From the IMG/VR virus record IMGVR_UViG_3300021960_000019: 64,000 nucleotides of DNA. One strand, given 5' to 3'. Below the pieces are notes generated by a model. The model was not told the origin of the DNA. It searched no databases and saw nothing but the letters and a program-made list of their open reading frames with translations. A program made the translations under genes and the position numbers. Positions 20,927-64,000 of the stretch are shown piece after piece. Numbering within the stretch: the stretch's first letter is position 1; each line of letters opens with the position of its first letter. The DNA is from a virus.

Positions 20927-21469
20927 ATGAAAAAGAAAAAACAACATTACGTAGACAACAAGAAGCTTCTGGTAGCTATGACTGAGTTCAAAGAATCAGT
21001 AGAATCTGCAAAACTCAATGAGACACCTAGGCCTAGAGTACCGCCATACATTGGTGAAAGTATAATGAAAATTGCAGAACATCTATCATATAGACCCAAT
21101 TTTATCAATTACACATATAAAGAAGATATGATTTGTGATGGTATTGAAAATTGTCTTTTATATATTGACAATTTCGACCCAGAGAAAAGTAAAAATCCTT
21201 TCGCGTATTTCACTCAAATTATATACTATGCATTTATCCGTAGAATTCAAAAAGAAAAGAAACAGATGTATGTTAAGTATAAGTCTTTAGAAAATTCTGA
21301 TGTGGTTGATGAGATTATGCAAACTAGTGATGGTAATCCTATGAAAAATAATTATTTGGATTTTATTCAAAATAATCTTGGTGACTTTCTTTCAGATTTT
21401 GAAGAAACACAAAGAAATAAAAAGAAAAAACGAGGTAGAAAACCAAAGGTCGAGAGTACTGGAGAATAG
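20927..21469 (+). CDS. gp55: Late sigma factor gp55
   Basis: HYVDNK, IAEHLSYRPNFINY and NPFAYFTQIIYYAFIRRIQKEKKQ. Confidence 0.95.
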   Translation: MKKKKQHYVDNKKLLVAMTEFKESVESAKLNETPRPRVPPYIGESIMKIAEHLSYRPNFINYTYKEDMICDGIENCLLYIDNFDPEKSKNPFAYFTQIIYYAFIRRIQKEKKQMYVKYKSLENSDVVDEIMQTSDGNPMKNNYLDFIQNNLGDFLSDFEETQRNKKKKRGRKPKVESTGE

Positions 21470-22531: not shown

Positions 22532-23767
22532 TTGATGTATAGTTATGAGTCCTTTATGAAGGACTGTTTTGGTGAATATGATAAACCTACAATAGAACAG
22601 TTTAGAGATGAATCTAGGTTGATATACAATGCTGGAGAAGTTACGTTACGAGATTTTTCTAATAAGTTAGATGATAGTGATTATAGAAAACATTCTTTCG
22701 ATAACTGGTCAGAAATTCTACATCACGCATATATCACAAATTTTGAAAATATGATGAAGAAATGGTTTATTGCACATGCAGAATGTAATAATCCAGATAA
22801 GTTTCTTCGTTTCAATGTCGAGCCATCCAGATATAATATAGAAGATGGATTTATCATAGATGGACGAAAAGAAATCACAAGTGGTAGATTATTAAGAAAT
22901 ATATCATATAAAGGTATATACAAAGAAACAGGAAAAATTAATTCCAATGAAAAGGATACGATGTTAGGTGTCTTTGATAATATTATTAACAATAAATTTA
23001 GTGTGTCTGCTTTACTTACACCGAAAGTCTCTGACTTCCTCTCGTCAGGAAATTATGATAGTCTTTTTGCAATGCTTCGCGGCACCGCTAATCGTGCTTC
23101 TGTTTTTAATCCATACACTTATTCGTGGATATTAAAAAATGTATTTCCAGATGGTAAAAAACTTTTATCTCCAGTGATGAGTTGGTGTACTCCAGTGATT
23201 GGTGTTGCAAATTCTAATTATGATGAATTAGTTGCAATTGATGTAATTCCAGATGTTGTGAATAAGGCTAAAGAACTACACACTTATAGTGAAAATATGA
23301 GAAATACCTTTTTTGGTGATGATTCAAAATCTGGTACTTTCTTTTGTTGTCCATCAGAAAAACTTGATGAGAGGTACAAATTTAGTGAAACATATAAAGA
23401 ATATTTTGATTTGGTGTTTTTTTCGCCCCCATATTATAATTTGGAAGTTTATACTGGAGGAGAACAATCCCACGAATCATGGCAAACCTACGAAGAATGG
23501 TTAGATGGATACTGGCGTCCTACAGTAGAATTATGTCATCGTTGTCTTAAAGATGGTGCGACTTTTAGTTTTGTAATTGTTGAAGATTATTCAGAGTTGA
23601 ATAAAAAACGCATTCCTATTAGTGCTGATATGAAAAGAATTGCATCAGAATATTTTACTTATGATAAACTGATACATATTTCGTGGGGGGGTTTTAGTGC
23701 AGCCAAAAATTCTAATGAAAAAAGAAAAAACTTGTTAGAAAATGTACACATACTAAAAAAGGTATAA
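22532..23767 (+). CDS. Putative amino-DNA methyltransferase with atypical SAM-binding motif
   Basis: DLVFFSPPYYNLEVY catalytic motif; motif I region reads LLSPVMSWC; C-terminal half parallels the 26457 protein. Confidence 0.7.
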   Translation: MMYSYESFMKDCFGEYDKPTIEQFRDESRLIYNAGEVTLRDFSNKLDDSDYRKHSFDNWSEILHHAYITNFENMMKKWFIAHAECNNPDKFLRFNVEPSRYNIEDGFIIDGRKEITSGRLLRNISYKGIYKETGKINSNEKDTMLGVFDNIINNKFSVSALLTPKVSDFLSSGNYDSLFAMLRGTANRASVFNPYTYSWILKNVFPDGKKLLSPVMSWCTPVIGVANSNYDELVAIDVIPDVVNKAKELHTYSENMRNTFFGDDSKSGTFFCCPSEKLDERYKFSETYKEYFDLVFFSPPYYNLEVYTGGEQSHESWQTYEEWLDGYWRPTVELCHRCLKDGATFSFVIVEDYSELNKKRIPISADMKRIASEYFTYDKLIHISWGGFSAAKNSNEKRKNLLENVHILKKV

Positions 23768-23768
23768 T

Positions 23769-25496
23769 ATGATTGAATTTCAAACAATTAGATGGAAGAA
23801 TTTTCTATCTACAGGAAACAACTTTACTTCAGTAGATTTAAATAGATCACCAACTACGTTAATTCTTGGAACGAATGGTGCAGGAAAATCAACTATTCTA
23901 GATGCATTGACATTTGGACTTTTTGGTAGGCCTTTTAGAAAAATTAATAAACCACAATTGGTAAATTCGGTAAATGAAAAAGATTGTTTAATTGAAATAG
24001 AGTTTAAAATTGGTAGTAAGACATATAAAGTAAAACGTGGTATAAAACCCAATGTATTCGAAATTTGGAATACCTACAGTGGAGTTATGATTAATCAGGA
24101 CTCTAAGGCAAAAGATTATCAGAAATATCTAGAAGAAAATATATTAAAATTGAATTATAAATCATTTACTCAAACAGTAATTTTGGGTAGTGCAACATTC
24201 GTGCCGTTTATGCAACTAAGTGCAGCTGACCGTAGAGATATTATTGAAGATTTATTAGATATTAAAATCTTTACGACAATGAATGATATGTTGAAAATAA
24301 AACAGATTGAACTTAAAGATGAACTATTTGAGAATGATAAGAATAGAGAATTAACTGATCAGAAAATAGATATGCAAGAAAGATATATTGAATCTGCTGA
24401 CGCAAATAAACAAAAGGCTGTTCAAGAACATAAGGGAAAAATTGCATTAAAGACTATGGAAATCAATAGTCATATATCTGATGTAGAGGTATTTGGAAAA
24501 CAGGTAGAAGATTTAAATGAAAGTATAAGTGATTTTTCTAAAATTAAAAAGAAACAATCTAAACTGGACAATATTGAAAGTCAGTTAATGTCTAGTTCTA
24601 AAAAACACACTAAAGACATTAAGTGGTTTGAAAGTATAGATTCTTGTCCAACTTGTAAACAGTCTGTCACAGAAAATCATAAAAAGAATATGATTAGTGA
24701 TAAGAAGGAAAAAGTTGGTGAAATTGAAAATGCAATCACTGCACTATCTGCAGAGTTTAAGTCTGTTAATCTCCGCATGAATAAAATTACATCTATACAA
24801 GAAAATATATCTAATATAAATTCACAAATCGCAGAAAAGAATACAGTTGTTAGAATGTTACAAAAACAAGTTTCAGAACTAACAAATGAAATAGGTGTTA
24901 TGGAAAATGACGATTCCGCATCGGTCACTAAGTTGAATAAAGAATTAAAAGACTTAAAGAAAACATTAAGTGAACACAATAAGATTAGAGAAGAACTTTT
25001 AACAAAAAGAGAATATTATACAGTATCTTCTGTTTTGTTAAAAGATACTGGTGTAAAAACATCTATCATCAAGTATTATTTACCAAAGATGAATAAATTG
25101 ATTAATAAATATTTACAAGAGATGGATTTTTATGTCAACTTTACTATGGATGAAAAATTTAGTGAAAACATAAAATCTAGAGGTAGAGAAAACTTTTCTT
25201 ATGCATCATTTTCTGAAGGTGAAAAGATGCGTATTGATCTTGCACTACTCTTTACTTGGAGAGCAATTGCAAAGATGAAAAATAGTGTTAACACTAATTT
25301 ATTAATCCTCGACGAAGTATTTGATAGTAGTTTAGATAATTCTGGTACAGATGAGTTTCTTAAACTATTAAATACATTAGGTGGTAATAATGTTTTTGTT
25401 ATTAGTCATAAAGGCGAAATACTTTATGATAAATTCCGTAGTGTGATTAAGTTTGATAAGGTTAAAAACTTTAGCCAGATTGTTGAGGAAAAATGA
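23769..25496 (+). CDS. gp46: Recombination ATPase gp46 (Rad50/SbcC-like)
   Basis: GTNGAGKST, CPTC hook, FSEGEKMR and LILDEVFD. Confidence 0.96.
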   Translation: MIEFQTIRWKNFLSTGNNFTSVDLNRSPTTLILGTNGAGKSTILDALTFGLFGRPFRKINKPQLVNSVNEKDCLIEIEFKIGSKTYKVKRGIKPNVFEIWNTYSGVMINQDSKAKDYQKYLEENILKLNYKSFTQTVILGSATFVPFMQLSAADRRDIIEDLLDIKIFTTMNDMLKIKQIELKDELFENDKNRELTDQKIDMQERYIESADANKQKAVQEHKGKIALKTMEINSHISDVEVFGKQVEDLNESISDFSKIKKKQSKLDNIESQLMSSSKKHTKDIKWFESIDSCPTCKQSVTENHKKNMISDKKEKVGEIENAITALSAEFKSVNLRMNKITSIQENISNINSQIAEKNTVVRMLQKQVSELTNEIGVMENDDSASVTKLNKELKDLKKTLSEHNKIREELLTKREYYTVSSVLLKDTGVKTSIIKYYLPKMNKLINKYLQEMDFYVNFTMDEKFSENIKSRGRENFSYASFSEGEKMRIDLALLFTWRAIAKMKNSVNTNLLILDEVFDSSLDNSGTDEFLKLLNTLGGNNVFVISHKGEILYDKFRSVIKFDKVKNFSQIVEEK

Positions 25497-26140
25497 ACAG
25501 TTTGATGTGTAAAGACTATAGAGAAGTAATCGAGGATTATTCATATGATTACATTTTTACTAGTCCGCCAGATTTTGAGGAAATTGGGTCTGATCCAGGC
25601 AAGCCCGAAGATTACCAAGATTTCCTTATTGAAGTTTTTTCGAAAGCGACACCGAAAAAAGGATTAATTACTGTTGCATTTACAGACAGAAAATACAAAG
25701 GAACTATTGTACCAAAATCATCCATCTTAAAACATTCTATGATGGCAATTGGATATAAATTGCAAACACATAAAATATGGGTTAAATCAACTAAGGTAGA
25801 TTTGTTTAGATTGACATACGGTAATGTACTTACATTCGGTAAAGGTAAAACAAAACAGAATTTAGAAAAAGAATTTAAACCAGATGTGTGGATGGACGGT
25901 ACAGATAAATATAAGAAATTTGCATATGGAATGCCCGTAAATGTACCCAGAAGATGCATTCTTAATTATACTGCAGAAAATGATGTAGTATATGACCCAT
26001 TTATGGGTAGTGGTACAACTGCTGTTGCAGCACATAGGACAAATAGACAATATATTGGTTCTGAGTTGAGTTCGGAATTTCACCAACTATCAATTGAAAG
26101 AATTAATGAAGAAGGAACAAGAATGGATCAATTTCTATGA
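25493..26140 (+). CDS. N4C/N6A DNA methyltransferase, beta-class motif order
   Basis: FTSPPD near the N-terminus and VYDPFMGSGTT near the C-terminus. Confidence 0.8.
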   Translation: MNSLMCKDYREVIEDYSYDYIFTSPPDFEEIGSDPGKPEDYQDFLIEVFSKATPKKGLITVAFTDRKYKGTIVPKSSILKHSMMAIGYKLQTHKIWVKSTKVDLFRLTYGNVLTFGKGKTKQNLEKEFKPDVWMDGTDKYKKFAYGMPVNVPRRCILNYTAENDVVYDPFMGSGTTAVAAHRTNRQYIGSELSSEFHQLSIERINEEGTRMDQFL

Positions 26141-26460
26141 CTTTAACAGGTGCATCCCAAAACATGCCATTTAATGTAGATATGGCATTGAAAGCTCAAC
26201 AATATGGGCATCCAAACGTTTATCCGAATTCTGAATACATAAAACCACCATTAGAAAAGAAAAAACTGAGAGTGGTTGACCCTGCAACTAGAACTGAAAT
26301 CAGTATTCAGAGATTTAAAGATATGCAAGAAAGAGTCGATGAACTGAGAGAAACATTACAGACTAATAAAAATGGCTTGACATATGATCGGGTTTCTGGT
26401 AATATAGAGGTTAAATCAGAAAAGATAGATCAAGGTCAAGTTGTGGATATTAGTGTATGA
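26137..26460 (+). CDS. Hypothetical protein
   Basis: Start and stop overlap both neighbours (ATGA coupling). Confidence 0.6.
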   Translation: MTLTGASQNMPFNVDMALKAQQYGHPNVYPNSEYIKPPLEKKKLRVVDPATRTEISIQRFKDMQERVDELRETLQTNKNGLTYDRVSGNIEVKSEKIDQGQVVDISV

Positions 26461-27788
26461 ATGAGCAAGAACAAGTATTATATAATTATTTAGAGCAGTG
26501 TAAGAATTCAGATGGATTACCAGTTTTTGACAATCCATTGTTTTCTCATCTTACAGGCGAGTATGGTAGAGAGATGTTTCGTAAAGTACTTGCGGAATAT
26601 ATTACAACCGAAAAACCACCATTTCCGTTTAAAGAATTTAAATATGAAGATATGGTCAAATCTTTTAGAAAACTAAAAAAGACTGATTATTCCGATTATA
26701 TCCAACCACAAGACCAAGTACAAAAAGAAGTCATGGAAAAGTATGATGACTATAAGTATTCGTATGCAGATCATGGTTTGGGTATGGTTGATGTACCATC
26801 TACTTTCAATGAAGTAAGTGATTATTTTCACAATAAAGGACGTATGGCCTGTGGGTCGTATGGGTTTACTTCTCCAGTTGATAGGTGGAACAGTGGAGAC
26901 AACATTTGGGGTGTGCTAGGCCCCATCTGGCGCGGAGTAAACGATAGTTGGGAGTTGACACCCAAACAGTACTTAATGGCATTTAGACTTGGTACATACA
27001 TTGCCACGCAGTTTAAACCCATGGTCGCAAAAGTGTTTTATGAAATGACTTCTGCGAAAAGAGTTCTTGATACATCAATGGGTTGGGGAGATAGACTTGC
27101 TGGTTTCTTTGGGTCTAATGCAACACATTATATTGGATGTGATCCAAATCCAAATACTTTTGCAATCTATAAAATACAGGCAGAAGAATATTCTAAATTG
27201 ATTGGTAATAAGTATACCATCACAGAGAAAGAAGATTATTTTGCATTGTATGGTGATAAAAAATCATGTGTATTTTATCGTAGTGGTGCAGAGAATTTAC
27301 CATGGGATGAAATAACAGATATTGATTGTGCATTTACATCACCACCATATTTTTCTACAGAAAGATATAATGAAGGTGGTGAACATTCCGAAGATCAATC
27401 TTGGTCTAAGTTTAATGAATACAATGCATGGAGAGATGAATTTTACTTACCAGTTTCTACAAATTCATATAATTCATTACGTGAAGGTGGACATATGATG
27501 GTTAATATCATGGATCCGAAAATCAAAGGTAAAAGATATTATTCTGGTGATGAATTGGTCGACGAATTAAAAGATTCGTTTTTAGGACAAATTGGTATGC
27601 GAATCATGCAACGTCCACAGGGTAAAGCTGTCTTTTCTGATGAAAATGGTGACTTTGACAAAGAAAAAATGAATAATTTTATGAATAAACTTTACATGGA
27701 AAATGTGTGGACTTTTCGTAAGGGAAACAATGACTTAGACTTGTTTAGACACAAGAGAGTTGTAAGTTTGGATAGTTTCTTTTCATAA
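26457..27788 (+). CDS. Amino-DNA methyltransferase, alpha-type motif order
   Basis: VLDTSMGWGDRL (motif I), YIGCDPN and FTSPPYFSTERY (motif IV). Confidence 0.85.
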   Translation: MNEQEQVLYNYLEQCKNSDGLPVFDNPLFSHLTGEYGREMFRKVLAEYITTEKPPFPFKEFKYEDMVKSFRKLKKTDYSDYIQPQDQVQKEVMEKYDDYKYSYADHGLGMVDVPSTFNEVSDYFHNKGRMACGSYGFTSPVDRWNSGDNIWGVLGPIWRGVNDSWELTPKQYLMAFRLGTYIATQFKPMVAKVFYEMTSAKRVLDTSMGWGDRLAGFFGSNATHYIGCDPNPNTFAIYKIQAEEYSKLIGNKYTITEKEDYFALYGDKKSCVFYRSGAENLPWDEITDIDCAFTSPPYFSTERYNEGGEHSEDQSWSKFNEYNAWRDEFYLPVSTNSYNSLREGGHMMVNIMDPKIKGKRYYSGDELVDELKDSFLGQIGMRIMQRPQGKAVFSDENGDFDKEKMNNFMNKLYMENVWTFRKGNNDLDLFRHKRVVSLDSFFS

Positions 27789-30129: not shown

Positions 30130-30178
30130 AGTAAAGTAAGAAGTGAATGATTCTGTGAAACCCTGTAAAGGATATATT

Positions 30179-31327
30179 ATGAAAAACTTAGAAGCCCGTA
30201 AGCAGTTCTGTGAACTTGCAATGGATACTTATGGTACTGATACTTTGTCACGTACTCAAATCAACAATCTCGCTAAGGTACATCAGTTGCCCGACCCTGC
30301 ATGGTTGAAGTCTGATAAGTATCGTGTTGCTCGCGGTAAATATCAGATGCCTTCTGATGAAACAACTAACATATCAGCCCCAGTGACAACGGCGCCTTCT
30401 AACAATGTAGTTAACATGCAAGTTGATTTGTCTTATACTGAAAACTTGGTTCCTGCAAAAGACCCCAGTTTTGTAAAGTTTGGTAATTTTGAAGATCTCA
30501 AAACTATCATTTCATCTAACATGTTTTATCCAGTTTTTATTACTGGTTTGTCTGGTAACGGCAAAACATTCGGTACGCAACAAGCTTGTGCTCAGTTGAA
30601 ACGTGAATGTATTGTAGTACCTATTACTGTTGAAACTGATGAGTCGGACCTTCTAGGTGACAAAACTCTGATTGATGGTAATGTTTCTTTTGTGCCCGGA
30701 CCTGTTATCCGCGCAATGGAACGTGGTGCAGTTTTGGTATTGGATGAAGTCGATCTTGCATCCAACAAAATTATGTGTTTGCAATCGATTGTTGATGGTA
30801 AAGGTGTTTACCTCAAGAAAGATAATCGGTTTGTTGAACCTGCGCCTGGATTTACTATTGTCGCAACTGCAAATACAAAAGGTAAAGGTTCTGACGATGG
30901 ACGTTTTGTAGGTACTAACGTTATGAACGAAGCGTTTCTGGAACGTTTCAAGATTACTTTCGAACAAGAATATCCTAATCAAACTGTCGAGAAAAAAATC
31001 TTGACTAAAGTATTGGATACTTTCGGAATGGAAGATGATTCATTCATTATGAACCTGACCGTATGGGCACAAACTATTCGGAAAACTTTCGAAGATGGTG
31101 GTATTGATGATGTTATCTCTACTCGCCGTTTGGTTCATATCATTGAAACATATGCGATTTTTAAAGACCGTGTAAAGTCAATTGAATTGTGTACTAATCG
31201 TTTTGATGATGATACAAAATCATCTTTCGTAGACCTTTATCAGAAAATTTCTGATGATGGTGTATCAACAGAAGAAGTTACTGGTGTTGACCTAGACAAA
31301 GCCGATGGTGAAGAAATCCCATTTTAA
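30179..31327 (+). CDS. CobS/MoxR-like AAA+ ATPase
   Basis: GLSGNGKT, LVLDEVD, ATANTKGKG and NEAFLERF. ATG at 30179 has an AAGGA RBS (track start 30143). Confidence 0.9.
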   Translation: MKNLEARKQFCELAMDTYGTDTLSRTQINNLAKVHQLPDPAWLKSDKYRVARGKYQMPSDETTNISAPVTTAPSNNVVNMQVDLSYTENLVPAKDPSFVKFGNFEDLKTIISSNMFYPVFITGLSGNGKTFGTQQACAQLKRECIVVPITVETDESDLLGDKTLIDGNVSFVPGPVIRAMERGAVLVLDEVDLASNKIMCLQSIVDGKGVYLKKDNRFVEPAPGFTIVATANTKGKGSDDGRFVGTNVMNEAFLERFKITFEQEYPNQTVEKKILTKVLDTFGMEDDSFIMNLTVWAQTIRKTFEDGGIDDVISTRRLVHIIETYAIFKDRVKSIELCTNRFDDDTKSSFVDLYQKISDDGVSTEEVTGVDLDKADGEEIPF

Positions 31328-31337
31328 GGAGTAAGAA

Positions 31338-31634
31338 TTGATAGACTACAAATTTAATGAAGATGTGCTGCTGGATGAAATCCGGCAGTATATCGATAAC
31401 ACTTATAAAGGCCACTATTCAAAAACCACTTACCAATCGACCGAAGTTATTATGGGTCGAGGCCATGGTGAGGGTTTTTGTATGGGCAATATTGACAAGT
31501 ATTCTAATCGTTATGGAAAAAAAGGTGATGAAGATGATTGGAGAAAAGACTTGATTAAAATAGTTCACTATGGTATACTAGCACTATACAATCACGATAT
31601 AACTTATGGAGACAATGAAAATGAAAATCAGTGA
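31338..31634 (+). CDS. DUF3310-like protein (T7 gp1.7-related)
   Basis: HY..GFCMGNIDKYSNRYGKKG..DLIKIVHY pattern. Confidence 0.7.
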   Translation: MIDYKFNEDVLLDEIRQYIDNTYKGHYSKTTYQSTEVIMGRGHGEGFCMGNIDKYSNRYGKKGDEDDWRKDLIKIVHYGILALYNHDITYGDNENENQ

Positions 31635-32316
31635 ATCGACCCAACTAGTTTTGCGAAATTTCGCAAACATCAATCAATCGCTTTTGTTAAAGCCAGGAAA
31701 CAGAATTAGTACAATGTCTGTTATGAGAAACATTCTTGCATCGGCAGATGTAGAAGAAACGTTTCCAGTAGAGTTTGGTATTTACGATTTACCTAGATTC
31801 TTGGGTAACTTGTCTATATATCCAGAGTTGGAATTTAATGATAAGTATGTACTTATGTCAAACGGATCAAAAACATATAAATTTATGGCATCAGATCCAT
31901 CTATCATTGTACATCCAACAACAACATTTGCGATGGATGATTCAGAACATAATGCACCAGATGCAAAAGAGGCCCCAGAGTATGATATTGATGTCACTCT
32001 TACTGGACCTGCTTTGTCAACTATTGCAAAAGTTGCGTCAATAAACTCTTTACCAGATTATGCATTGATGACCGAGGATGGTGTAATTAACTTTGTTGCT
32101 CTGGATAAAAAATCTGATACATCTGATCTTGCGAAAGAACCTGTTGGTAAATCTGATGCAGATTTTAAAATGTTTTTCCGCGCTGAAAACTTGAAACTTG
32201 TAGAGGGTGATTACAATGTACGTGTATCACGCCATAAGATTTCTACTTTCCGCCATCAAACAAAGGCCCTGCAATATTGGGTAACTCTTGAACAGGATTC
32301 GGAGTACAATGGGTAA
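31606..32316 (+). CDS. gp45: Sliding clamp gp45 (start may be 31615 or 31621)
   Basis: LRNFANINQSL and FGIYDLPRFL; synteny. Confidence 0.93.
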   Translation: METMKMKISESTQLVLRNFANINQSLLLKPGNRISTMSVMRNILASADVEETFPVEFGIYDLPRFLGNLSIYPELEFNDKYVLMSNGSKTYKFMASDPSIIVHPTTTFAMDDSEHNAPDAKEAPEYDIDVTLTGPALSTIAKVASINSLPDYALMTEDGVINFVALDKKSDTSDLAKEPVGKSDADFKMFFRAENLKLVEGDYNVRVSRHKISTFRHQTKALQYWVTLEQDSEYNG

Positions 32317-33254
32317 TGAAAGAACAATTCCTATGGGTCGAGAAATATCGGCCACAATCTATTGATGATTGTATTCTGCCAGAAGAATTAAAAGATACAT
32401 TCAAAGAGTTTGTGGATAATAAAGACTTGCCTAACCTGTTATTGACAGGTGGGCCCGGCGTAGGTAAAACTACAGTTGCAAAGGCTCTGTGTCTAGAAAT
32501 GGGCATGGATCATCTTCTAATAAATGGTTCGGAGGAGGGTGGTATTGATACCCTCCGAAATACTATTAGAAATTACGCATCCACTGTGAGTTTTTCGAGT
32601 CAGGGTAAAGTTGTGATTCTAGATGAGGCGGATTATCTTAATCCACAGTCTACACAGCCTGCATTGCGTGGTTTCATTGAAGAATTTGCAGGCAACTGTA
32701 GATTTATTTTGACTTGTAATTTCAAAAACCGCATAATCGAACCGTTGCACTCACGATGTTCTGTAATTGAATTTAAAATAAAAAAATCTGATAAACCCAG
32801 ACTTGCTGCAAGTTTTGGTAAAAGGGTTTGTGGTATTTTGGATGATGAGAACATTAAATACCAAAAAAGTGTAGTTGGTCAGGTAATGATGAAATACTTT
32901 CCTGATTGGAGAAGGGTATTAAACGAACTACAACGTTATTCTGTTGGTGGTACAATTGATTCTGGTATTTTTGAAAATCTTGGTGAGATATCTTTAGACA
33001 GTCTGGCAAATTCACTCAAAAATAGAGACTTTACTGAAATGCGTAAATGGGTTGCAGAAAACTCTGACAACGACCCAAATCAACTTTTTAGAAAGATTTA
33101 TGATGGCATGTATGACTACCTTGAACCAAATTCGATTCCAGATGCAGTACTTATTATTGCACAATATCAATATCAATCTGGATTTGTTGCAAATACTGAT
33201 ATTAATCTTGTTGCATGTCTTACAGAGATGATGGTTAGTTGTCAGTGGAAATAA
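32316..33254 (+). CDS. gp44: Clamp loader ATPase gp44
   Basis: WVEKYRP, GGPGVGKTT, ILDEAD and PLHSRC. Confidence 0.96.
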   Translation: MKEQFLWVEKYRPQSIDDCILPEELKDTFKEFVDNKDLPNLLLTGGPGVGKTTVAKALCLEMGMDHLLINGSEEGGIDTLRNTIRNYASTVSFSSQGKVVILDEADYLNPQSTQPALRGFIEEFAGNCRFILTCNFKNRIIEPLHSRCSVIEFKIKKSDKPRLAASFGKRVCGILDDENIKYQKSVVGQVMMKYFPDWRRVLNELQRYSVGGTIDSGIFENLGEISLDSLANSLKNRDFTEMRKWVAENSDNDPNQLFRKIYDGMYDYLEPNSIPDAVLIIAQYQYQSGFVANTDINLVACLTEMMVSCQWK

Positions 33255-33257
33255 CAA

Positions 33258-33722
33258 ATGTCAAAAAAACATTTCAAAAAACTTCTTAAAAATGTAGATT
33301 TTTCTGCAAACTATGGCGCAGCCGGAGGGAGAACTTTTACTCTACTGCGCGATGCTGGATACACTGAAAACCAAATTTCTAATAAATTTAATGGTCACGA
33401 TAATAGTATCAGCTGGGAAGATTTGAGAGATATTTTTGAATTTCAAAATAGATTGTGTTATTATCTTTCTTGGAAAATAGATTTAGATGAATTGTATGTA
33501 CCATATTCTCCCTTTGCCCCTTCGGTAGATAGAATTGATAATTCTAAAGGATATGATTTAGATAATATTGTTATATGTACTAGATTTGCAAACTTGGGAA
33601 TGAGTGCATACAACCATCCTAATTTCAGAGAAAGATTGCAGTATGAAATGGATAATAGAGAAAACATATTTGTTGAAAGATACAAAAAGCAACCAAAGTT
33701 TGGATTGGACAATTTTTTATGA
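33258..33722 (+). CDS. HNH/His-Me-finger-like endonuclease
   Basis: PSVDRIDNSKGY..NIVICTRFAN motif; inserted between gp44 and gp62. Confidence 0.65.
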   Translation: MSKKHFKKLLKNVDFSANYGAAGGRTFTLLRDAGYTENQISNKFNGHDNSISWEDLRDIFEFQNRLCYYLSWKIDLDELYVPYSPFAPSVDRIDNSKGYDLDNIVICTRFANLGMSAYNHPNFRERLQYEMDNRENIFVERYKKQPKFGLDNFL

Positions 33723-34105
33723 GTTATGATTTATTTAAAGACTATATCCCAGCAATATCAAACACTAAATTAGATTTAATGAATAGTGGTGATGAACTGT
33801 GGGAAAAAAATTATCCAGCATTTATGGTAAATAAAACATTTTCACATTTTCAAGATACAATTTTATATGCACAGGAGATGAATCGACGCCCCCACCTAGA
33901 CAATAAGCTTCAGTTTGACTATTTACTAAATACAATTAGACCGATGAAAAGATTTTCAAGATGGCCTAAAAAGATTGCTCATGATGATTTAGAATATGTT
34001 AAAGAATATTATGGGTATAATGATGTAAGAGCTGAAGAGGCTCTTAGTTTACTTAATGATGAACAAATAAAAATAATAAAACAAAAGTTGAACAAAGGTG
34101 GATAG
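33719..34105 (+). CDS. gp62: Clamp loader small subunit gp62
   Basis: YPAFMVNK, QFDYLLNTIRP and VKEYYGYN; synteny. Confidence 0.9.
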   Translation: MSYDLFKDYIPAISNTKLDLMNSGDELWEKNYPAFMVNKTFSHFQDTILYAQEMNRRPHLDNKLQFDYLLNTIRPMKRFSRWPKKIAHDDLEYVKEYYGYNDVRAEEALSLLNDEQIKIIKQKLNKGG

Positions 34106-36798: not shown

Positions 36799-39336
36799 AT
36801 GCGTTTTTATACAAATGTACAATGTGTCGGTAATAAAATATTCCTCAGAGAATACGACAATGGAAAGCGTAGGGAAGTAAAACTAGATTACTCTCCTACT
36901 CTTTTTGTATCTGGTGGTAGTGGTAAATCCAAATATAAAACTTTGCATGGAGAAAGTGTTGAGCCTATTAGACATGGTTCAATACGTGATGCAAGAGAAT
37001 TTATCAAAAAGTATGACGATATAGAAAATATGAAAATCTATGGTCATACACAATTCATCTATCCATTTATTGGTGATGAGTATCCAAGTGAAATTCAGTA
37101 TGATGAATCAAAGATAAACATTTGCAATATCGATATCGAAGTTGAGTGCGAAAATGGTTTTCCAGAACCAACTCTTGCAAACGAAATTGTTAACGCAATC
37201 ACAATGAAAATGAAAGATCAATATATTGTTCTTGGATTGGGTGATTGGGAAAACAAAAGTCCAGAAACACAACATCTTAAAATTAAATACTATAAGTTTA
37301 CTGATGAACTTGCACTCTTGCGTAGTTTTTTGGAAATTTGGACACATGCAAAAATCGATATTGTTACTGGTTGGAATGTGAACCAGTTTGATATGACGTA
37401 TCTTGTCAATCGTATTGGTAAAACTCTTGGTGATGATGAAGTCAAAAGATTGTCCACATGGGGGATTGTCAGGAAAATAGAAAAGAATATTCGTGGTCAG
37501 ATGCAGACACAAGTACAGATCAGTGGATTATCTATTATTGATTATCTTGATTTGTACAAAAAGTTTACATATGTAACTAGAGAAACGTATCGATTAGATC
37601 ATATTGCATATGTCGAGTTGGGTCGGAAAAAACTTGACCACTCTGAATTTGCAAATATGCATTTATTCTATAAACAAGATTATCAAAAGTTTATTGATTA
37701 TAACATTATCGACGTTGAGTTGGTCGATAAACTTGAAGATAAACTTAAACTAATGGAATTACTTATTACCATTGCATATCAGTCTAAAGTAAATTATGAC
37801 GAAGTATTCTCACCTATTAAGGTGTGGGATTCCATTGCATTTCATGAATTGCGTAGAAGTAAAACTGTAATTCCGCCTCGTAATAATAATACTAAATCGG
37901 AAGCTTATGAGGGTGCATATGTAAAAGACCCAACTGTTGGTAAACATGAATGGGTTATGTCATTTGATTTAAACAGTTTGTATCCACACTTAATTATGCA
38001 GTATAATATTTCACCAGAAACATTGTATGACAAAGAAAGAGTCAACACATCTGTTGAGAAACTATTGAATCAAGAAACGGATTTATCTAGTTTGCAGCGC
38101 AGTAATATGACTGTGTGTCCAAGTGGGGTTCTTTTCAATAAAGATAAACGTGGGTTTCTGCCCAAGTTGATGCAAAGTATGTATGATGATCGTACTACAT
38201 ATAAGAAGTTGATGTTAAAGACCAAACAAGATAAGATTGATGGTAAGGGCGACCCTGTTGAATTGGACAAGAAGATTGCTCAGTTAAACAACAAACAAAT
38301 GGCCGCAAAGATTTTGTTAAACTCTGCTTATGGTGCTTTGGGAAATCAGTACTTTAGATACTTTGATATCAGACAGGCAGAATCTATCACTTTGTCTGGA
38401 CAACTTTCAATTCGATGGATCGAAGAGAAAGTAAATATATACATGAATAAAATTTTAAAAAACGATGAGGATAAAAATTATGTCATTGCAAGCGATACGG
38501 ATTCAATTTACGTTGCTCTTGGTGACTTGGTTGACAAGTTTGTTAAAATCAAGGAAGGTGAGTCAAAATCAGAAGAAACACGAAGGAAAGTTGACTTTCT
38601 TGATAAGGTTGCCCAAGAGAAGTTTGAACCATATATCGATAAGTGTTATCAAGATCTTGCTACGTATGTAAATGCATACGACCAGAAGATGCAGATGGCC
38701 AGAGAGGTTATTGCCGATAGTGGTATCTGGACTGCAAAGAAAAGATACATTCTCAATGTTTGGGATAACGAAGGTGTTAGATATAAATCACCAGAACTTA
38801 AAATCATGGGTTTGGAGGCAGTTCGTTCATCAACACCAGAATCTTGTAGAAATATGATTAAGAAATCACTTGAACTTATTCTGCGTAGTAACAACGATAG
38901 TTTGATTGAATTTATTGAACAGTTTAGACAAGATTTCAAAACATATGAAGTTGATGATGTTGCATTTCCTAGAAGTGTAAATGGACTTACTAAATATCAT
39001 GACCCCGTTCTCACATACAAAAAAGGTACACCAATTCATGTAAAGGGTGTATTATTCTACAACCAACTAGTCAAAAAACATAAACTAGAAATGCAGTATC
39101 CGCCTATAAAAGACGGTGAAAAAATTAAGTTTTGTTATCTAAAAGAACCAAACCCATTGCAAAATAATACTATTGCAATTGCGGCCGGTACATTACCCAA
39201 AGAATTTGAGTTGGATAAGTTTCTTGATTATGATACACAATTTGAAAAGGCATATCTCGAACCAATTAAAACTATTGCGGAAACAATTGGTTGGGAAATA
39301 GAAAAGAAAATAACATTAGACAGTTTTTTTAATTAG
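36799..39336 (+). CDS. gp43: Family B DNA polymerase gp43
   Basis: Exonuclease DIEVE, SFDLNSLYP, KILLNSAYGALG and DTDS; C-terminal TLDSFFN clamp peptide. Confidence 0.98.
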   Translation: MRFYTNVQCVGNKIFLREYDNGKRREVKLDYSPTLFVSGGSGKSKYKTLHGESVEPIRHGSIRDAREFIKKYDDIENMKIYGHTQFIYPFIGDEYPSEIQYDESKINICNIDIEVECENGFPEPTLANEIVNAITMKMKDQYIVLGLGDWENKSPETQHLKIKYYKFTDELALLRSFLEIWTHAKIDIVTGWNVNQFDMTYLVNRIGKTLGDDEVKRLSTWGIVRKIEKNIRGQMQTQVQISGLSIIDYLDLYKKFTYVTRETYRLDHIAYVELGRKKLDHSEFANMHLFYKQDYQKFIDYNIIDVELVDKLEDKLKLMELLITIAYQSKVNYDEVFSPIKVWDSIAFHELRRSKTVIPPRNNNTKSEAYEGAYVKDPTVGKHEWVMSFDLNSLYPHLIMQYNISPETLYDKERVNTSVEKLLNQETDLSSLQRSNMTVCPSGVLFNKDKRGFLPKLMQSMYDDRTTYKKLMLKTKQDKIDGKGDPVELDKKIAQLNNKQMAAKILLNSAYGALGNQYFRYFDIRQAESITLSGQLSIRWIEEKVNIYMNKILKNDEDKNYVIASDTDSIYVALGDLVDKFVKIKEGESKSEETRRKVDFLDKVAQEKFEPYIDKCYQDLATYVNAYDQKMQMAREVIADSGIWTAKKRYILNVWDNEGVRYKSPELKIMGLEAVRSSTPESCRNMIKKSLELILRSNNDSLIEFIEQFRQDFKTYEVDDVAFPRSVNGLTKYHDPVLTYKKGTPIHVKGVLFYNQLVKKHKLEMQYPPIKDGEKIKFCYLKEPNPLQNNTIAIAAGTLPKEFELDKFLDYDTQFEKAYLEPIKTIAETIGWEIEKKITLDSFFN

Positions 39337-53082: not shown

Positions 53083-55335
53083 ATGGCAGATACTAGATTA
53101 TCCAGTTCGATATCATCACTCAGACAGAAACTATTAGATCAAATTCCGTCGGCAAATCCTGAACAATTAAAAAGAATTGCAAGGTCTGCAAGAAACCTTG
53201 GGCACACTCAAGATACTGATATTGAAGATGCAATCAATACAAGAGCAAATACTCTTATTGTAACTGCAGATGCAACAGAATCTGAAGCTATTGCTGCCGC
53301 GATCAATCAAGTTGACGATTCAATAAATCCAAATATTACTGCATCTGGTACAACCGCAACAGCTGCTGGTACAAATATTGTCACTTCTGACTCTGCGCCT
53401 GGTAATCCCGAAGATGGTGATTTATGGTTTAAAACAGATGAGATGAATTTATATATTTATTATGATGATGGAACATCTTCTCAGTGGGTACAATCAAACG
53501 CACCAACAGTTAGTGGTGGTTCTGGTGATATATCAGACTTGACAGACAGTACTGGACTATTAGGTTCTGGTGGTGCTACTGTCTATGCAGATATGGCGGC
53601 ACTAATAGCCGCTACTGGAATGTCTTCTGGCGATCTTGCTTTGGTTACTGCAAATAATAATATGTATGTATATAATGGATCTGGTTGGTATAAGATTGCT
53701 ACAGTACAAAACGATTCACCTAGTGCAATCACTGGAGTGAATGGAACTTATTCGTTGGCAAAGGACGGAACACCTACGGTTATCACAGCAGTTTCTACAG
53801 ACCCCGAAGGATTCACTCTCATATGGAGTTATGCAGTCACTTCTGGTTCTTTAGGAACAACTGCAACTGTTTCACAAAATGAAAATGTATTTACAATTAC
53901 ACCTAGTACTGATAGTGCTAATGCTGGAACATTTGGGTTGACATTTTCGGTTACTGATGGAGTCAACGGTGCAGTTAATGCAATTAGTACATTTACTTTA
54001 ACATTTTCTATAGATTGGTCATCTGGGTCGTTACAGCATAGTCATCGTGCCTGGGGATGGGATGCTACAAGTCAGGGCAGTGATATAGCATTATCCGAAG
54101 ATGGAGATAAAATGATTGTGGGCAATCCATCATCTGGCAACAACAATGAAGGTACTTGGTCTATATTCACAAGGTCTGGTACTAATTGGGGGAGTCCAAC
54201 TCATATCGCACACACTGATAATTATGAAAACGGTAGGTTAGGAACATCAGTTGCTATGGACGCAACTGGTTCGAGAGTAGCGATTTCTGCTTTGTATGGT
54301 AGTACTTCAGGAAATACTTCAAATAAGGCGGGAAATGTAATAATATATACACTAAGTGGTACAACTGCAACAAGAGAAGCTGTTATAGTTGCTGATACAA
54401 ATTATTTATATGCATTAAATTATCCCACTTATGGTGGATGTATAAGTATGGATAAATTAGGAGAAAGAATAATTGTTGGTCATGCAGGAGCCACTGCAGG
54501 AAATCGAACTAATCGTGGACAAGCACACATATATAAGAGGACTGGAACAACGTGGGCAAAAGAACAAACTTTGGAAAGCGATTACAATTATGATTACCAA
54601 GGAAATGGAGTAGCAATTTCTGGTGATGGTAATACTGTTTTTGTGACAAGGGGCGCTGGTGGCGGAAATTCCAATGAGAGGGCCCAAACGGCCGCACCAT
54701 CTGTTAAAATATACACAAGAAGTGGAACGAGTTGGAGCCTTCAAACAGAAATAGATTCTCCGGCGGGTATCTATCAGAACAATCGATTTGGTGGTATATC
54801 GACGGGCGGGATTGGGTCAATATCATGCACTAATGATGGTAATATTCTAGTGATTGGTGATGGTGGGGCATCAAGCAACGGCTCGAACAATAATAAGCAT
54901 GGAAAGGCATGGGTGTTTACAAGAACTGGCACTTCATGGGATTCTGGAGTAGCATTAACTCCATCTAGCTCGTTGGGTACGAGGGATGGATTTGGAACAA
55001 GAGTTACAATAGATGACAATGGAACTGTTATTGTTGTAGGTAAACCACAAGCGGAAAATAGCCAATATTTAGATGGTGGTGAGTTTCATGTTTTTCAGAA
55101 AAACGAATCGGGAAGTTTTGTGGAAGTAGATAAAATATCAAATCCAGACGATCTCAGTTCTGTATCAGGCACTGAAGGACCACAGGACGGCGCGAAATTT
55201 GGGCAAGGCCTTGCTATATCTGGCAATGCGGAATATCTAGGTGTCGGGGCCCCAATCCATTTCTATTACGTGAGTGGCAACCCCACTGGTTATCATGGCG
55301 ATCACTACGGCAAAACTTATGTTTATATACCTTAA
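53083..55335 (+). CDS. Fibre/receptor-binding-type protein with FG-GAP-like propeller
   Basis: MADT helical N-domain, GDLWF module, Ig-like domain, and repeated G..VA(I/L)SxDG and RxGTxW blades. Confidence 0.7.
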   Translation: MADTRLSSSISSLRQKLLDQIPSANPEQLKRIARSARNLGHTQDTDIEDAINTRANTLIVTADATESEAIAAAINQVDDSINPNITASGTTATAAGTNIVTSDSAPGNPEDGDLWFKTDEMNLYIYYDDGTSSQWVQSNAPTVSGGSGDISDLTDSTGLLGSGGATVYADMAALIAATGMSSGDLALVTANNNMYVYNGSGWYKIATVQNDSPSAITGVNGTYSLAKDGTPTVITAVSTDPEGFTLIWSYAVTSGSLGTTATVSQNENVFTITPSTDSANAGTFGLTFSVTDGVNGAVNAISTFTLTFSIDWSSGSLQHSHRAWGWDATSQGSDIALSEDGDKMIVGNPSSGNNNEGTWSIFTRSGTNWGSPTHIAHTDNYENGRLGTSVAMDATGSRVAISALYGSTSGNTSNKAGNVIIYTLSGTTATREAVIVADTNYLYALNYPTYGGCISMDKLGERIIVGHAGATAGNRTNRGQAHIYKRTGTTWAKEQTLESDYNYDYQGNGVAISGDGNTVFVTRGAGGGNSNERAQTAAPSVKIYTRSGTSWSLQTEIDSPAGIYQNNRFGGISTGGIGSISCTNDGNILVIGDGGASSNGSNNNKHGKAWVFTRTGTSWDSGVALTPSSSLGTRDGFGTRVTIDDNGTVIVVGKPQAENSQYLDGGEFHVFQKNESGSFVEVDKISNPDDLSSVSGTEGPQDGAKFGQGLAISGNAEYLGVGAPIHFYYVSGNPTGYHGDHYGKTYVYIP

Positions 55336-55920
55336 TTTTAAATAGTACGAAAAGGATAATACTATGGCAATCAATTTTCCAAATTCACCAACAAATGGCC
55401 AAGCATTTGATGTTGGGTCTATGACATTTGAATATAATTCCACTAAAGCAAGATGGGAAATTGTCGCTGGCACAACTAATACAGATATTTCCGATTTAAC
55501 AGACACTGGTGGACTATTAGGTTCTGGTGGTGCAACTGTTTATGCAGACCTGCCAGCATTAATTGCTGTAACTGGAATGTCTTCTGGTGATCTTGCTTTG
55601 GTTACTGCAAATAATAATATGTATGCATATAATGGATCTGGTTGGTGGAAAATTGCAACACTTGAAAACAATTCTCCAACTGCAATCACTGGAGTAAATG
55701 GATCTTATTCACTAGAATCTGATGGAACACCTACAGTGATTACAGCAGTATCCACAGACCCCGAAGGGTTCCCCCTAACATGGAGTTATGCAGTCACATC
55801 TGGTTCTCTTGGTACAACAGCAACTGTTTCACAAAATGAAAATGTATTTACTATAACGCCAGGCACAAACGATCCATCAGATGCTGGTACATTTACTCTA
55901 ACATTTAGTGTTACTGATGG
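53527..55920 (+). repeat. About 435-bp imperfect direct repeat (53527-53960 and 55484-55920) shared by two adjacent fibre genes
   Basis: Long identical runs, e.g. GGACTATTAGGTTCTGGTGGTGC, GATCTTGCTTTGGTTACTGCAAATAATAATATGTATG and GCAACTGTTTCACAAAATGAAAATGTATTTAC. Confidence 0.9.
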
Positions 55921-56833
55921 TAGTTCTGGTGCGACATCCGTGGCCTCAGCATTTAGTCTTAACTTTCTACCGATTAATGGTGAGGTCACAAACGTATCTG
56001 GACTAAGTGCAGCTGCATATGGTGATTATTTAATTAAAAAACTAACCTCTGGGAGTGGTAGTTTCACAATTCCAACTACAGCCAAGTACGACTTATTAAT
56101 GGTCGGCGGTGGTGGCGGTGGTGGTGATGGTAATGCTGCCGGTGGCGGCGGTGGCGCTGGTGGAATGGTCGAAGGGTTTGAGGTAACTTTGCCGGCTGGT
56201 AATTATACCATTTCAGTTGGTGCCGGTGGATCTGGTGCAACATCCAATGATGGCAGTGGGAGTACTGGTGGAAATACAGTATTAACAAATACTACTACTG
56301 GAGACTCTATGACTGCCTTGGGTGGTGGTGCTGGTAGAGGTTGGAGTGGTAATTTGGCAACTTCTAACGGTGGTTCTGGTGGTGGTGATACAGGGCCCGA
56401 CAATTCTTCTGGTACATCTATCGCACAAGCAAAAGGAGCATTTACCGCATTTGGTGGTGAATCATTCCATGAATATGGTAATAACGGCGGCAACAAATGG
56501 GGCAACGATTATGGAGGCGGCGGTGGCGGCGCAGGCAGCGCGGCTGGCACTCAGGGCGCATCCGGCGATCCAAGAGCTAATTCGATAGAGACAGGTAGTG
56601 CTCAATACTATGCAGAAGGTGCTACTGGCGCCACTTTTCAAGGTACTTCTCATGCAACCACTAGTTATGGACTTGGTGGTAATGGTGGGAAATACGGTAA
56701 TTCTTCCACTGAGATAGCACCGACCAATGGAACAAATGGAACTGGATCTGGTGGTGGAGGCAAGACTGATTCGTATCTCGACGCGAATGTCGGCCAAGGT
56801 GGCAGTGGTATTTTTGTATTACGACATGTATAA
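55364..56833 (+). CDS. Fibre-type protein with glycine-rich C-terminal domain
   Basis: MAINFPNSP N-terminus, shared Ig-like block, VGGGGGGG..GGGGAGG repeats and terminal GGSGIFVLR. Confidence 0.7.
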   Translation: MAINFPNSPTNGQAFDVGSMTFEYNSTKARWEIVAGTTNTDISDLTDTGGLLGSGGATVYADLPALIAVTGMSSGDLALVTANNNMYAYNGSGWWKIATLENNSPTAITGVNGSYSLESDGTPTVITAVSTDPEGFPLTWSYAVTSGSLGTTATVSQNENVFTITPGTNDPSDAGTFTLTFSVTDGSSGATSVASAFSLNFLPINGEVTNVSGLSAAAYGDYLIKKLTSGSGSFTIPTTAKYDLLMVGGGGGGGDGNAAGGGGGAGGMVEGFEVTLPAGNYTISVGAGGSGATSNDGSGSTGGNTVLTNTTTGDSMTALGGGAGRGWSGNLATSNGGSGGGDTGPDNSSGTSIAQAKGAFTAFGGESFHEYGNNGGNKWGNDYGGGGGGAGSAAGTQGASGDPRANSIETGSAQYYAEGATGATFQGTSHATTSYGLGGNGGKYGNSSTEIAPTNGTNGTGSGGGGKTDSYLDANVGQGGSGIFVLRHV

Positions 56834-56860
56834 TCAATAGAACTAAAGGATAAAATATAG

Positions 56861-57484
56861 ATGGCCGATACAAACTTGAACACTTCTATTGCTTCAGTCA
56901 AATCTAAAATTCTTAATGATTTGCCAACTGCAACTATAGAAGAAGTTACTCAACTTGCAAGAGGTGCTAGAGCTGCTGGACTAGACGAAGATGCTACAGT
57001 AGAAACTGCATTAAATTCCAGAGTCAATACTTTGGTATCGGGGGCATCCGCTGAAGATTTGAGGAAACTTTCTGTCGCATTAAGACAACTCAGAAATCCT
57101 GGCTTAACAGTTGCATCTTCGATTAGTAATACAGATGGCTTGACAGAAGGCACAACTAATGTATACTATACTAATGCAAGAGTGCAATCTCATCTAGGAA
57201 GTTTTTCTGGTAATATCTTACCAGATGCAAATGATACATATGATATTGGTTCTGCAGAATATAAAATTAGAGATTTATATGTAAGTGATAATTCTATACA
57301 TATTGGAGATAAGACTTTAAGTAGAGACAATGTGGACAGAAGTATGGAGGTTTTTGATGAATTGCCACCATCTTCACCCACAGATATTGGTAACAAGGGT
57401 GATGTTCGTATAGATTCTGATTATATGTACGTATGTAAAGACCTAAATAGTTGGGTAAGAATTCCTATAGATAAAACGTGGTAA
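56861..57484 (+). CDS. Short fibre/adaptor protein
   Basis: MADT helical N-domain; ILPDANDTYDIGS..IRDLY fibre motif; GNKGDVRIDSDYMYVC..W. Confidence 0.65.
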   Translation: MADTNLNTSIASVKSKILNDLPTATIEEVTQLARGARAAGLDEDATVETALNSRVNTLVSGASAEDLRKLSVALRQLRNPGLTVASSISNTDGLTEGTTNVYYTNARVQSHLGSFSGNILPDANDTYDIGSAEYKIRDLYVSDNSIHIGDKTLSRDNVDRSMEVFDELPPSSPTDIGNKGDVRIDSDYMYVCKDLNSWVRIPIDKTW

Positions 57485-57489
57485 AATAA

Positions 57490-60231: not shown

Positions 60232-60310
60232 GGCAAAAAACAATAAGATGACGTATTCATACACAATTTTTTTATTAAATATATAATAAGAACTAAAGGA
60301 ATTTCTATAA

Positions 60311-62785: not shown

Positions 62786-62792
62786 TATAAAG

Positions 62793-64000
62793 ATGGCAAT
62801 TAATTTTCCAGATAGTCCAAGTGATGGGGATACTCACGAAGGATATGCGTATAATGCTACGACAGGTACGTGGGAAATCACTGTTGCGCCTATTAATGGT
62901 CCTATTACTGGTCATGTATTACCAGATACAACATTAACATACGATTTAGGTTCTGCAGATAAGAAATTTAGAGATATCTATCTATCATCTGGTACAATTT
63001 ATCTTGGAGATGAAAATTTATCAATTACAGATGGTCAACTTACAAGTTCTGCATCTATTGCTTCACCAGATTTAGATGTATCACTAATTCCAGAAAATAT
63101 GGAATTGGTTGTGAATGCAAACGAAGGTGGCCATGGAATGAATTGGTTTTGGACTTGGGGAGAAACTTTGTTATATGGTAGAGGTTCAGTTACAAATTCA
63201 AGTTCAGAAACGGAAGTACCACTCTATAGAGAAGGAACATATACCTTTGTAAACTTTGCATATACACAATATGGAGATATGACACAGACACATGCCGGTT
63301 ATTTAAAATCAGTTTTAGGAGCGGGTACAGATAATATAATTCCAGGCGTAACAAGCACTACAGAAGATCGTTTTAATTCGGTGGCTGGCGGAAACACACA
63401 GGTGCAGAAACATGTATGGACTATTCCATCCGATTTTTCAGCATCTGATATCACCTTAGTTGCGCCATCTATTTCTATGAATGTTTCTACAAATTCTGGT
63501 GCATATGATATAGATATTGTCCATGGTACAGATATTGAAGCAGTTTATCGTGGCGGAACTTATACGTTTAATTTAAATGTTACAGGACATCCATTTTATT
63601 TAACAACAGATGATGGCACAAACTGGACACAAGGTGGTTATGTTGGAGAATATACAAACGGTGTCTCTGGGTCTAGAACAGAAGTCGGCACTCTCACGTT
63701 TACAGTTCCCAATGATGCTCCTGATACACTATATTATCAGTGTGCAAATCATAGCGGAATGAAAGGTACAATTCATGTAAAAGATTTAGAAGTTGATGTG
63801 TTGGGTGACGCAGACAATTCTATTAGGATTTACTTTCAACACACACAATTTGGACATAAGACATCGTTTTTGATCAAAGACAAGCCAGTAATACCAACTA
63901 CTGCATGTTTAATGTATGATGGAACAAAATTTGTACCAACTCATATGAATGACTATCTTAATTCTCATGCAGAAGTTGAAACAAAAATAGGACAAATTGC
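62793..64000 (+). CDS. Fibre-type protein, 3'-truncated, with cupredoxin-like motif (not in the ORF track)
   Basis: Manual translation: MAINFPDSPSDG..VLPDTTLTYDLGSADKKFRDIY..GHPFYL..LYYQCANHSGMKG; no stop seen before the window end. Confidence 0.8.
   Translation, partial: MAINFPDSPSDGDTHEGYAYNATTGTWEITVAPINGPITGHVLPDTTLTYDLGSADKKFRDIYLSSGTIYLGDENLSITDGQLTSSASIASPDLDVSLIPENMELVVNANEGGHGMNWFWTWGETLLYGRGSVTNSSSETEVPLYREGTYTFVNFAYTQYGDMTQTHAGYLKSVLGAGTDNIIPGVTSTTEDRFNSVAGGNTQVQKHVWTIPSDFSASDITLVAPSISMNVSTNSGAYDIDIVHGTDIEAVYRGGTYTFNLNVTGHPFYLTTDDGTNWTQGGYVGEYTNGVSGSRTEVGTLTFTVPNDAPDTLYYQCANHSGMKGTIHVKDLEVDVLGDADNSIRIYFQHTQFGHKTSFLIKDKPVIPTTACLMYDGTKFVPTHMNDYLNSHAEVETKIGQI

Follow-up and report, generated by a model that had tools for sequence, protein, structure and literature searches.

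Why should an orphan DNA methyltransferase of a phage end in the same peptide as the phage's own DNA polymerase? The question is raised by a 64,000-nucleotide stretch of DNA from an uncultured marine T4-like phage (IMG/VR record IMGVR_UViG_3300021960_000019, 35% G+C; hereafter the window), in which a methyltransferase of 443 amino acids, MT443, terminates in SLDSFFS and the DNA polymerase gp43, which is about 52% identical to cyanophage polymerases, in TLDSFFN. A sequence-only reading of the window had pointed to these two ends and to related ones on a smaller methyltransferase (MT215) and an HNH-like protein, and had proposed that the phage loads its methyltransferases on its own sliding clamp, gp45. 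All four ends were confirmed, and from comparisons of sequences and models we consider that the tail of MT443 probably binds a clamp. The genes and segments concerned are the following:

26457-27788, + strand: MT443 (443 amino acids), orphan amino-methyltransferase (Pfam PF01555, E 2e-6; AlphaFold2 model; class I S-adenosylmethionine (SAM)-dependent methyltransferase fold)
27735-27785, + strand: C-terminal appendage of MT443, residues 427-443, delimited by predicted local distance difference test (pLDDT) values and column conservation, with the [ST]L[DE]xF[FL] motif at 27765-27782 and SLDSFFS at 27765-27785
36799-39336, + strand: gp43, family B DNA polymerase (PHROG 262), TLDSFFN end at 39313-39333
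25493-26140, + strand: MT215 (215 amino acids), small beta-class amino-methyltransferase (PF01555, E 9e-25), RMDQFL end at 26120-26137
33258-33722, + strand: HNH/endonuclease VII-like protein, inserted between gp44 and gp62 (PHROG 3322, E 1e-15), GLDNFL end at 33702-33719
31606-32316, + strand: gp45 sliding clamp, the proposed partner (profile matches to RB69/T4 gp45; model fold)

As the sequence-only reading had noted, the LDSFF core is the same in gp43 and MT443 and is written with different codons, the five codons differing at three synonymous positions. Among the 74 genes of the window, a strict pattern (L[DE]xF[FL] no more than two residues from the stop) was found three times, in gp43, MT443 and the HNH-like protein, against 0.02 expected from the internal rate, and a looser pattern that adds MT215 was found four times against 0.05 (Poisson P ~1e-6), the pattern having been picked post hoc, after the data were seen. 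Two further proteins, absent from the earlier reading, lack such a tail:

22532-23767, + strand: MT411 (411 amino acids), distant MT443 paralogue without clamp-type tail (hhalign against the MT443 profile), used as internal control
20927-21469: gp55, late sigma factor

In the window and in close homologues, gp55 ends in a basic tail and is without the C-terminal clamp epitope of T4 gp55. Judged by these ends, late transcription in this lineage may not be clamp-activated via gp55.

The end of MT443 is conserved well beyond the window. It is retained in 33 of 37 non-redundant orthologues (80% identity cut), and an alignment of 50 orthologues resolves it into an invariant D-x-F anchor, a variable basic spacer and then [TS]-L-[ED]-x-F-[FL]. 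Within this tail L-x-x-F-F is conserved, while the residue after the D/E varies, as does the spacer. In related loci the motif forms the end of 70 of 83 distinct MT443 proteins and of 52 of 57 distinct gp43 proteins, but of none among 344 other core genes; of 450 unannotated open reading frames (ORFs), 11 end in it. Two of these eleven tail bearers were tested and turned out to be a Mom-like modifier and an amidotransferase-like protein. A related 151-kb record (83% complete, about 210 ORFs) has the tail on gp43 and the MT443 orthologue only, and in a related 65-kb record it is again limited to these two. Across 29 cognate pairs, the position frequencies of the gp43 and MT443 tails match. We conclude that the MT443 tail is a real, selected feature. 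The sequence-only reading had made its proposal depend on tails being conserved among homologues; MT443 bears this out, while the tails of MT215 and the HNH-like protein are confined to the nearest clade.

The rest of MT443 is recognizable as a methyltransferase. It has an invariant DTSxGWG motif I (DTSMGWG in the window copy) and a catalytic FTSPPY, and its PF01555 match lies above the family cut-off. In the AlphaFold2 model (pLDDT 88.9), a large N-terminal region is followed by a Rossmann fold that extends to about residue 424. Structure comparison returned the class I SAM-methyltransferase fold (Z up to 14.6, root-mean-square deviation 3.1 over 187 residues), with the aligned part stopping at residues 422-426. 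The tail thus lies outside the catalytic fold: pLDDT drops to 68 and then to 49, residues 431-443 are of low confidence and a short helix at 438-441 covers LDSF, which fits a peptide that folds on a partner. We take the SPPY motif to suggest an N4-cytosine enzyme, and the Atlas clusters that contain MT443 bear the automatic name N4-cytosine methyltransferase; the product is probably N4-methylcytosine (m4C). Sequence and fold searches of the PDB with MT443 returned only generic SAM-dependent methyltransferases, with no specificity attached, and our searches found no characterised close homologue and no full-length homologue in cultured phages.

The proposed partner is encoded nearby together with its loader, so that gp45, gp44 and gp62 make up a complete clamp system in the same operon:

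32316-33254, + strand: gp44, clamp-loader ATPase subunit (PF21328 Gp44_lid on the same-position gene of near-identical contigs)
33719-34105, + strand: gp62, clamp-loader small subunit (PF16790 on the same-position gene of near-identical contigs)

A profile search with gp45 retrieved RB69 and T4 gp45 at E 1e-35 to 1e-38, and its model has template modelling (TM) scores of 0.83-0.84 to 6DRT, 1CZD and 1B77. In RB69 gp45 the peptide pocket is formed by Y39, I107, F109, W199 and V217, with R32 and K204 (PMC3012046). Read from alignments, the window gp45 has L44 for Y39, F108 for I107, M110 for F109, W225 for V217 and K211 for K204. Four of the five hydrophobic pocket positions are still hydrophobic by this alignment, and the change of W199 to serine is offset by that of V217 to tryptophan, the large aromatic residue having moved. 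L438, F441 and F442 of MT443 would be the residues that insert into this pocket.

This kind of docking is well described for other proteins. The gp45-binding peptides of gp43, gp33, gp55 and T4 ligase in T4 and RB69 (LDFLF type; 1B8H, 6DRT; PMC6212786, PMC2988020, PMC3012046) likewise consist of a short C-terminal [ST]-L-acid-x-aromatic-hydrophobic motif on a flexible linker, in genomes that encode gp45, gp44 and gp62, and the motif is interchangeable among gp43, gp33 and gp55 (PMC2988020). The present case differs: a DNA methyltransferase is the predicted client, the motif reads L-[DE]-x-F-F in place of L-D-F-L-F, and gp55 is tailless. By its sequence, MT443 would add a class of clients to a motif already known, methyltransferases not being among the published gp45 partners that we found.

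A second line of evidence comes from orthologues of MT443 (43-47% identity) in small phages that have a Sak annealing protein, a terminase and a portal. No polB, polA, gp45 or beta clamp was found in these small-phage records (22-27 kb, 73-79% complete), and their portal shares 41.5% identity with the HTVC106P portal; the 36.9-kb genome of this Pelagibacter phage has no annotated polymerase. Here the methyltransferase ends in QGSLF, QSTLF or QKDLF, with Q, L and F invariant in the four orthologues; such a C-terminal Q-x-x-L-F is the motif by which clients of the bacterial beta clamp are recognized. Q, L and F, at positions 1, 4 and 5 of the beta-clamp pentapeptide, weigh most in binding. In three orthologues (L153:10001-11437, L154:10001-11434 and L155:5127-6563), Q-[SN]-L-F also occurs within the first ten residues, so these enzymes possibly carry two clamp motifs each. 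In a tree of the catalytic core, built without the tails, the small-phage orthologues fall within a branch with 95/99 support, alongside gp45-tailed members. Their ends resemble the Q-x-x-L-F pentapeptide or Q-x-x-L-x-L hexapeptide of bacterial beta-clamp clients (bioRxiv 10.64898/2026.05.27.728225) and phage Mu C protein (PMC12867686), with the difference that the likeness holds for relatives of MT443 and not for the window enzyme, and that position 2 is G, S or K and not aliphatic.

Taken together, the end of MT443 is probably best explained as a clamp-binding motif of the gp43/gp33/gp55/ligase type, by which new phage DNA would be methylated. MT443 would ride gp45 rings at or behind the fork, either sharing a trimer with gp43 or using clamps left behind, and new phage duplex would be methylated, probably to m4C, faster and more fully than by free diffusion, ahead of host restriction enzymes or packaging. 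We are less sure of this function than of the binding, and lean towards a role in replication-coupled methylation. The T4 ligase peptide binds gp45 with a dissociation constant of about 11 uM and confers a modest clamp-dependent stimulation (PMC6212786); by analogy, the clamp would probably localise MT443 and not activate it.

The proposal that the phage loads its methyltransferases on its clamp stands on firm ground for one of the three tailed proteins besides gp43. For MT443 the tail is conserved, exclusive, outside the fold and swapped in phages that seem to lack a replisome of their own, while those of MT215 and the HNH-like protein are limited to the nearest relatives. Of the distinct MT215 ends at 68% identity or above, 7 of 11 have the tail, against 1 of 61 below that level, and close relatives with tailed MT443 carry untailed MT215. 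The HNH-like tail is shared by both homologues at 89-95% identity and is absent or vestigial at about 36-53%; the gene is missing from close relatives that retain MT443. On this pattern, the clamp-type tail behaves as a linear module that is easily gained or lost, firmly so for MT443 and plausibly for the other two. It would be portable, appearing on MT215 and the HNH-like protein in this lineage only and giving way to a host beta-clamp motif in the orthologues of phages without a polymerase. MT215 has SPPDF instead of SPPY, which is kept in its homologues; MT411 matches the MT443 profile (hhalign probability 92%, E 5e-7) with a degenerate motif I (SPVMSW). The activity or product of both enzymes may be unusual. 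The HNH-like protein has D-R-I-D-N where the catalytic His is usual in HNH nucleases, and may be a mobile or inactive nuclease.

Several observations weigh against a clamp-binding role for the tail. In the pocket of the window gp45, RB69 W199 and R32 are replaced by S208 and M37. In one T4-like clade gp45 is present and gp43 has its usual tail, yet the MT443 orthologues end in ATLPI, SVLPI or ATLF (loci L046, L048, L049, L051-L062, L064, L163 and L164); QATLPI is close to the Hda hexapeptide QLSLPL, and these ends may reflect either a loss or a switch to the host beta-clamp motif. More distantly, 47 of 113 family members stop at the catalytic core without a tail, 40 end in a hydrophobic pair and 26 in other tails, and the homologue in Vibrio phage 2.058.O is tailless beside a gp45-like gene. 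The tail is therefore dispensable for the MT443 family. Within the close family, covariation between cognate gp43 and MT443 tails exceeds that of shuffled pairs (23.3 versus 20.2 +/- 0.8, p 2e-4), with one clade that has F-to-L in both proteins driving the score; deep examples are few, and we set the p-value aside as independent evidence. An approximately unbiased (AU) test does not reject a placement of the small-phage orthologues outside the T4 group (p 0.25), the swap amounts to a single clade in records that are 73-79% complete, and the same test does not establish that transfer went from T4-like phages to small ones. Finally, the closest precedent, T4 alpha-glucosyltransferase, embodies the same idea of a phage DNA-modifying enzyme coupled to replication via gp45, and the earlier in vitro claim of its interaction with gp45 was not reproduced, in pull-downs that used C-terminal His tags (bioRxiv 10.64898/2025.12.06.692756, PMC13216743). 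MT443 differs from that case in having an explicit, conserved motif of the polymerase type.

Orthologues of MT443 also turned up in bins labelled as bacterial and archaeal (L157-L164). Their contigs are those of T4-like phages, in most cases with gp43, gp45 or gp62 as a neighbour, a sign of viral contamination of the bins and not of cellular genes.

Shared tails are seen in other phages as well. In a distant phage (L151), three methyltransferases and the C-terminal half of the polymerase all end in x-E-F-F-[EV], and in two more (L149 and L173) several genes end in D-[LF]-F-[EY] or ELFA, so that tails are lineage-specific and common within a genome. In distant jumbo-like phages (L149:12244-15418, L173:4979-11816 and L150:889-5682), common tails are found on asparagine-synthase-like, radical SAM and pyridoxal phosphate (PLP) enzymes and on a protein of 136-138 amino acids that follows a helicase. 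These enzymes are candidate hypermodification enzymes tagged for the clamp.

In the replication block of the window, the order of genes is gp55, gp47, MT411, gp46, MT215, a 107-amino-acid ORF, MT443, a large ORF, a MoxR-type AAA ATPase, gp45, gp44, the HNH-like gene, gp62 and regA, with gp43 further on. The large ORF 3' of MT443 matched no family. A consensus scan gave one promoter candidate for MT443:

26377-26405, + strand: sigma70-like promoter candidate (TTGACA, 17-nucleotide spacing, TG-extended -10) just upstream of MT443 (consensus scan only)

Its position suggests early expression; sigma70-like matches near MT443 are no commoner than in shuffled sequence, and a consensus search found no T4 late promoter in front of the gene. 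The MoxR-type ATPase (30143-31327) ends in an acidic tail with EIPF, and its homologues in EEPF, DCPF, EAPF or DIDF. This end resembles the C-terminal DDIPF peptide of bacterial single-stranded DNA-binding protein (SSB) and is possibly a second docking mimic. At the far end of the window (53083-64000), long virion- or fibre-like ORFs have repeated N-termini (three of a MAINFP... and three of a MAD.... type), which are typical of modular tail or head fibres.

What else could explain the tail of MT443? The tail might bind gp45 and yet serve no fork-coupled protection, for example by localising MT443 to replication centres or letting it track on leftover clamps, with methylation used for regulation, repair-strand marking or packaging. 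In T4, the chemistry of ligase is not stimulated by gp45, and the sealing of multiple nicks is helped only modestly (PMC6212786); Hiraoka et al. argue that in marine viral methylation anti-restriction plays only a minor part (PMC8919816). The window itself still avoids restriction-like sites (GGGAC occurs 0 times against 18 expected, GGTACC and GTGCAC 0 times, and GAAGAC, GAAGAG, GATC and CATG are depleted), which argues against blanket protection by methylation; the avoided sites possibly hint at the restriction systems of the host. The other tail bearers, however, are types of DNA-modifying enzyme, as expected if new DNA is modified, and, with gp55 tailless, this lineage gives no evident sign of late transcription by clamp tracking. 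On balance we regard a function apart from protection as unlikely.

The sequence-only reading had gone further, and held that tethering confines methylation to phage DNA and not host DNA, allows dense methylation of a very short motif, and so marks self from non-self. In T4, gp44/62 loads gp45 only at phage primer-template junctions, which would favour such confinement. Marine Myoviridae-like genomes do have short m4C motifs (RGCY, CCWGG, GGWCC), seldom common to their hosts (PMC8919816) and without a link to MT443. None of the three claims found support. Orthologues with beta-clamp-type tails could not tell phage from host DNA by tethering, since beta clamps also sit on the host chromosome, where these enzymes would dock too. 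No cognate modification-sensitive restriction enzyme was found among the annotated neighbours of MT443, and MT411 is tailless. The strong avoidance of restriction-like sites in the window speaks here, too, against blanket protection; k-mer bias revealed nothing about the target of MT443, RGCY sites being neither consistently enriched nor depleted. We therefore consider this extended proposal improbable, and self/non-self marking by MT443 equally so.

A hydrophobic end could also have a role away from the clamp, by folding back on the enzyme, in oligomerisation, as a degron or in docking on another replisome partner. The invariant D-x-F anchor ten residues upstream is probably packed on the fold, and the SSB-like DxPF end of the MoxR ATPase suggests that acidic-aromatic ends can have other partners too. 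Such a role does not predict the identity with the polymerase tail, the restriction of the motif to gp43 and MT443, or its replacement by Q-x-x-L-F, and it appears very unlikely. That the tail is a neutral relic of the gene 43 3' end, copied on insertion, or a chance match is largely refuted and of negligible probability: the MT443 gene does begin at the gp43 stop codon in many relatives, but the codon is the same for 87 of 203 identical tail residues (43%), no more than codon usage predicts, so the resemblance is maintained at the protein level. The tail also persists at 50% core identity and in relatives where the gene is kilobases from gp43, and its frequency is far above the chance expectation.

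The preferred reading, clamp-coupled methylation by MT443, has a counterpart in DNMT1, likewise a DNA methyltransferase proposed to be recruited to new DNA by a trimeric clamp, proliferating cell nuclear antigen (PCNA), through a short PCNA-interacting peptide (PIP) box (PMC9690074). MT443 is, in contrast, an unrelated SPPY amino-methyltransferase and not a C5 CpG enzyme; its motif is C-terminal and without the PIP glutamine, and the combination of a C5 PC motif with a Q-x-x-h-x-x-a-a PIP box is not found in it. DNMT1-PCNA is at most a functional analogy, not a homology. Closer to phages, plasmid M.EcoGIX and M.BceJIII (PMC7736820) are orphan methyltransferases of mobile elements that act with a replication protein; the differences from MT443 are their association with Pol I, their single-stranded substrate and the lack of a defined clamp motif. 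Our literature search, with most subscription papers outside its reach, brought up no phage or bacterial DNA methyltransferase reported to bind gp45 or the beta clamp. Binding of Mu Mom to the clamp was not confirmed in the literature.

Clamp-coupled DNA methylation is textbook knowledge in eukaryotes and, as far as this search went, not established for phages or bacteria. The chances seem to us about even that phage DNA methyltransferases form a general, undescribed class of sliding-clamp clients, in which one family would swap its terminal peptide between a gp45 and a host beta-clamp motif according to the replisome that copies the genome, a convergent form of DNMT1/PCNA-like replication-coupled methylation. 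If the tails bind, this would explain how a lytic phage completes the methylation of many fast-replicating genomes ahead of restriction or packaging. It would also provide a tag in the sequence by which unknown DNA-modifying enzymes could be spotted in viral genomes, and two small proteins and a peptide would then be enough to test when phage DNA is modified.

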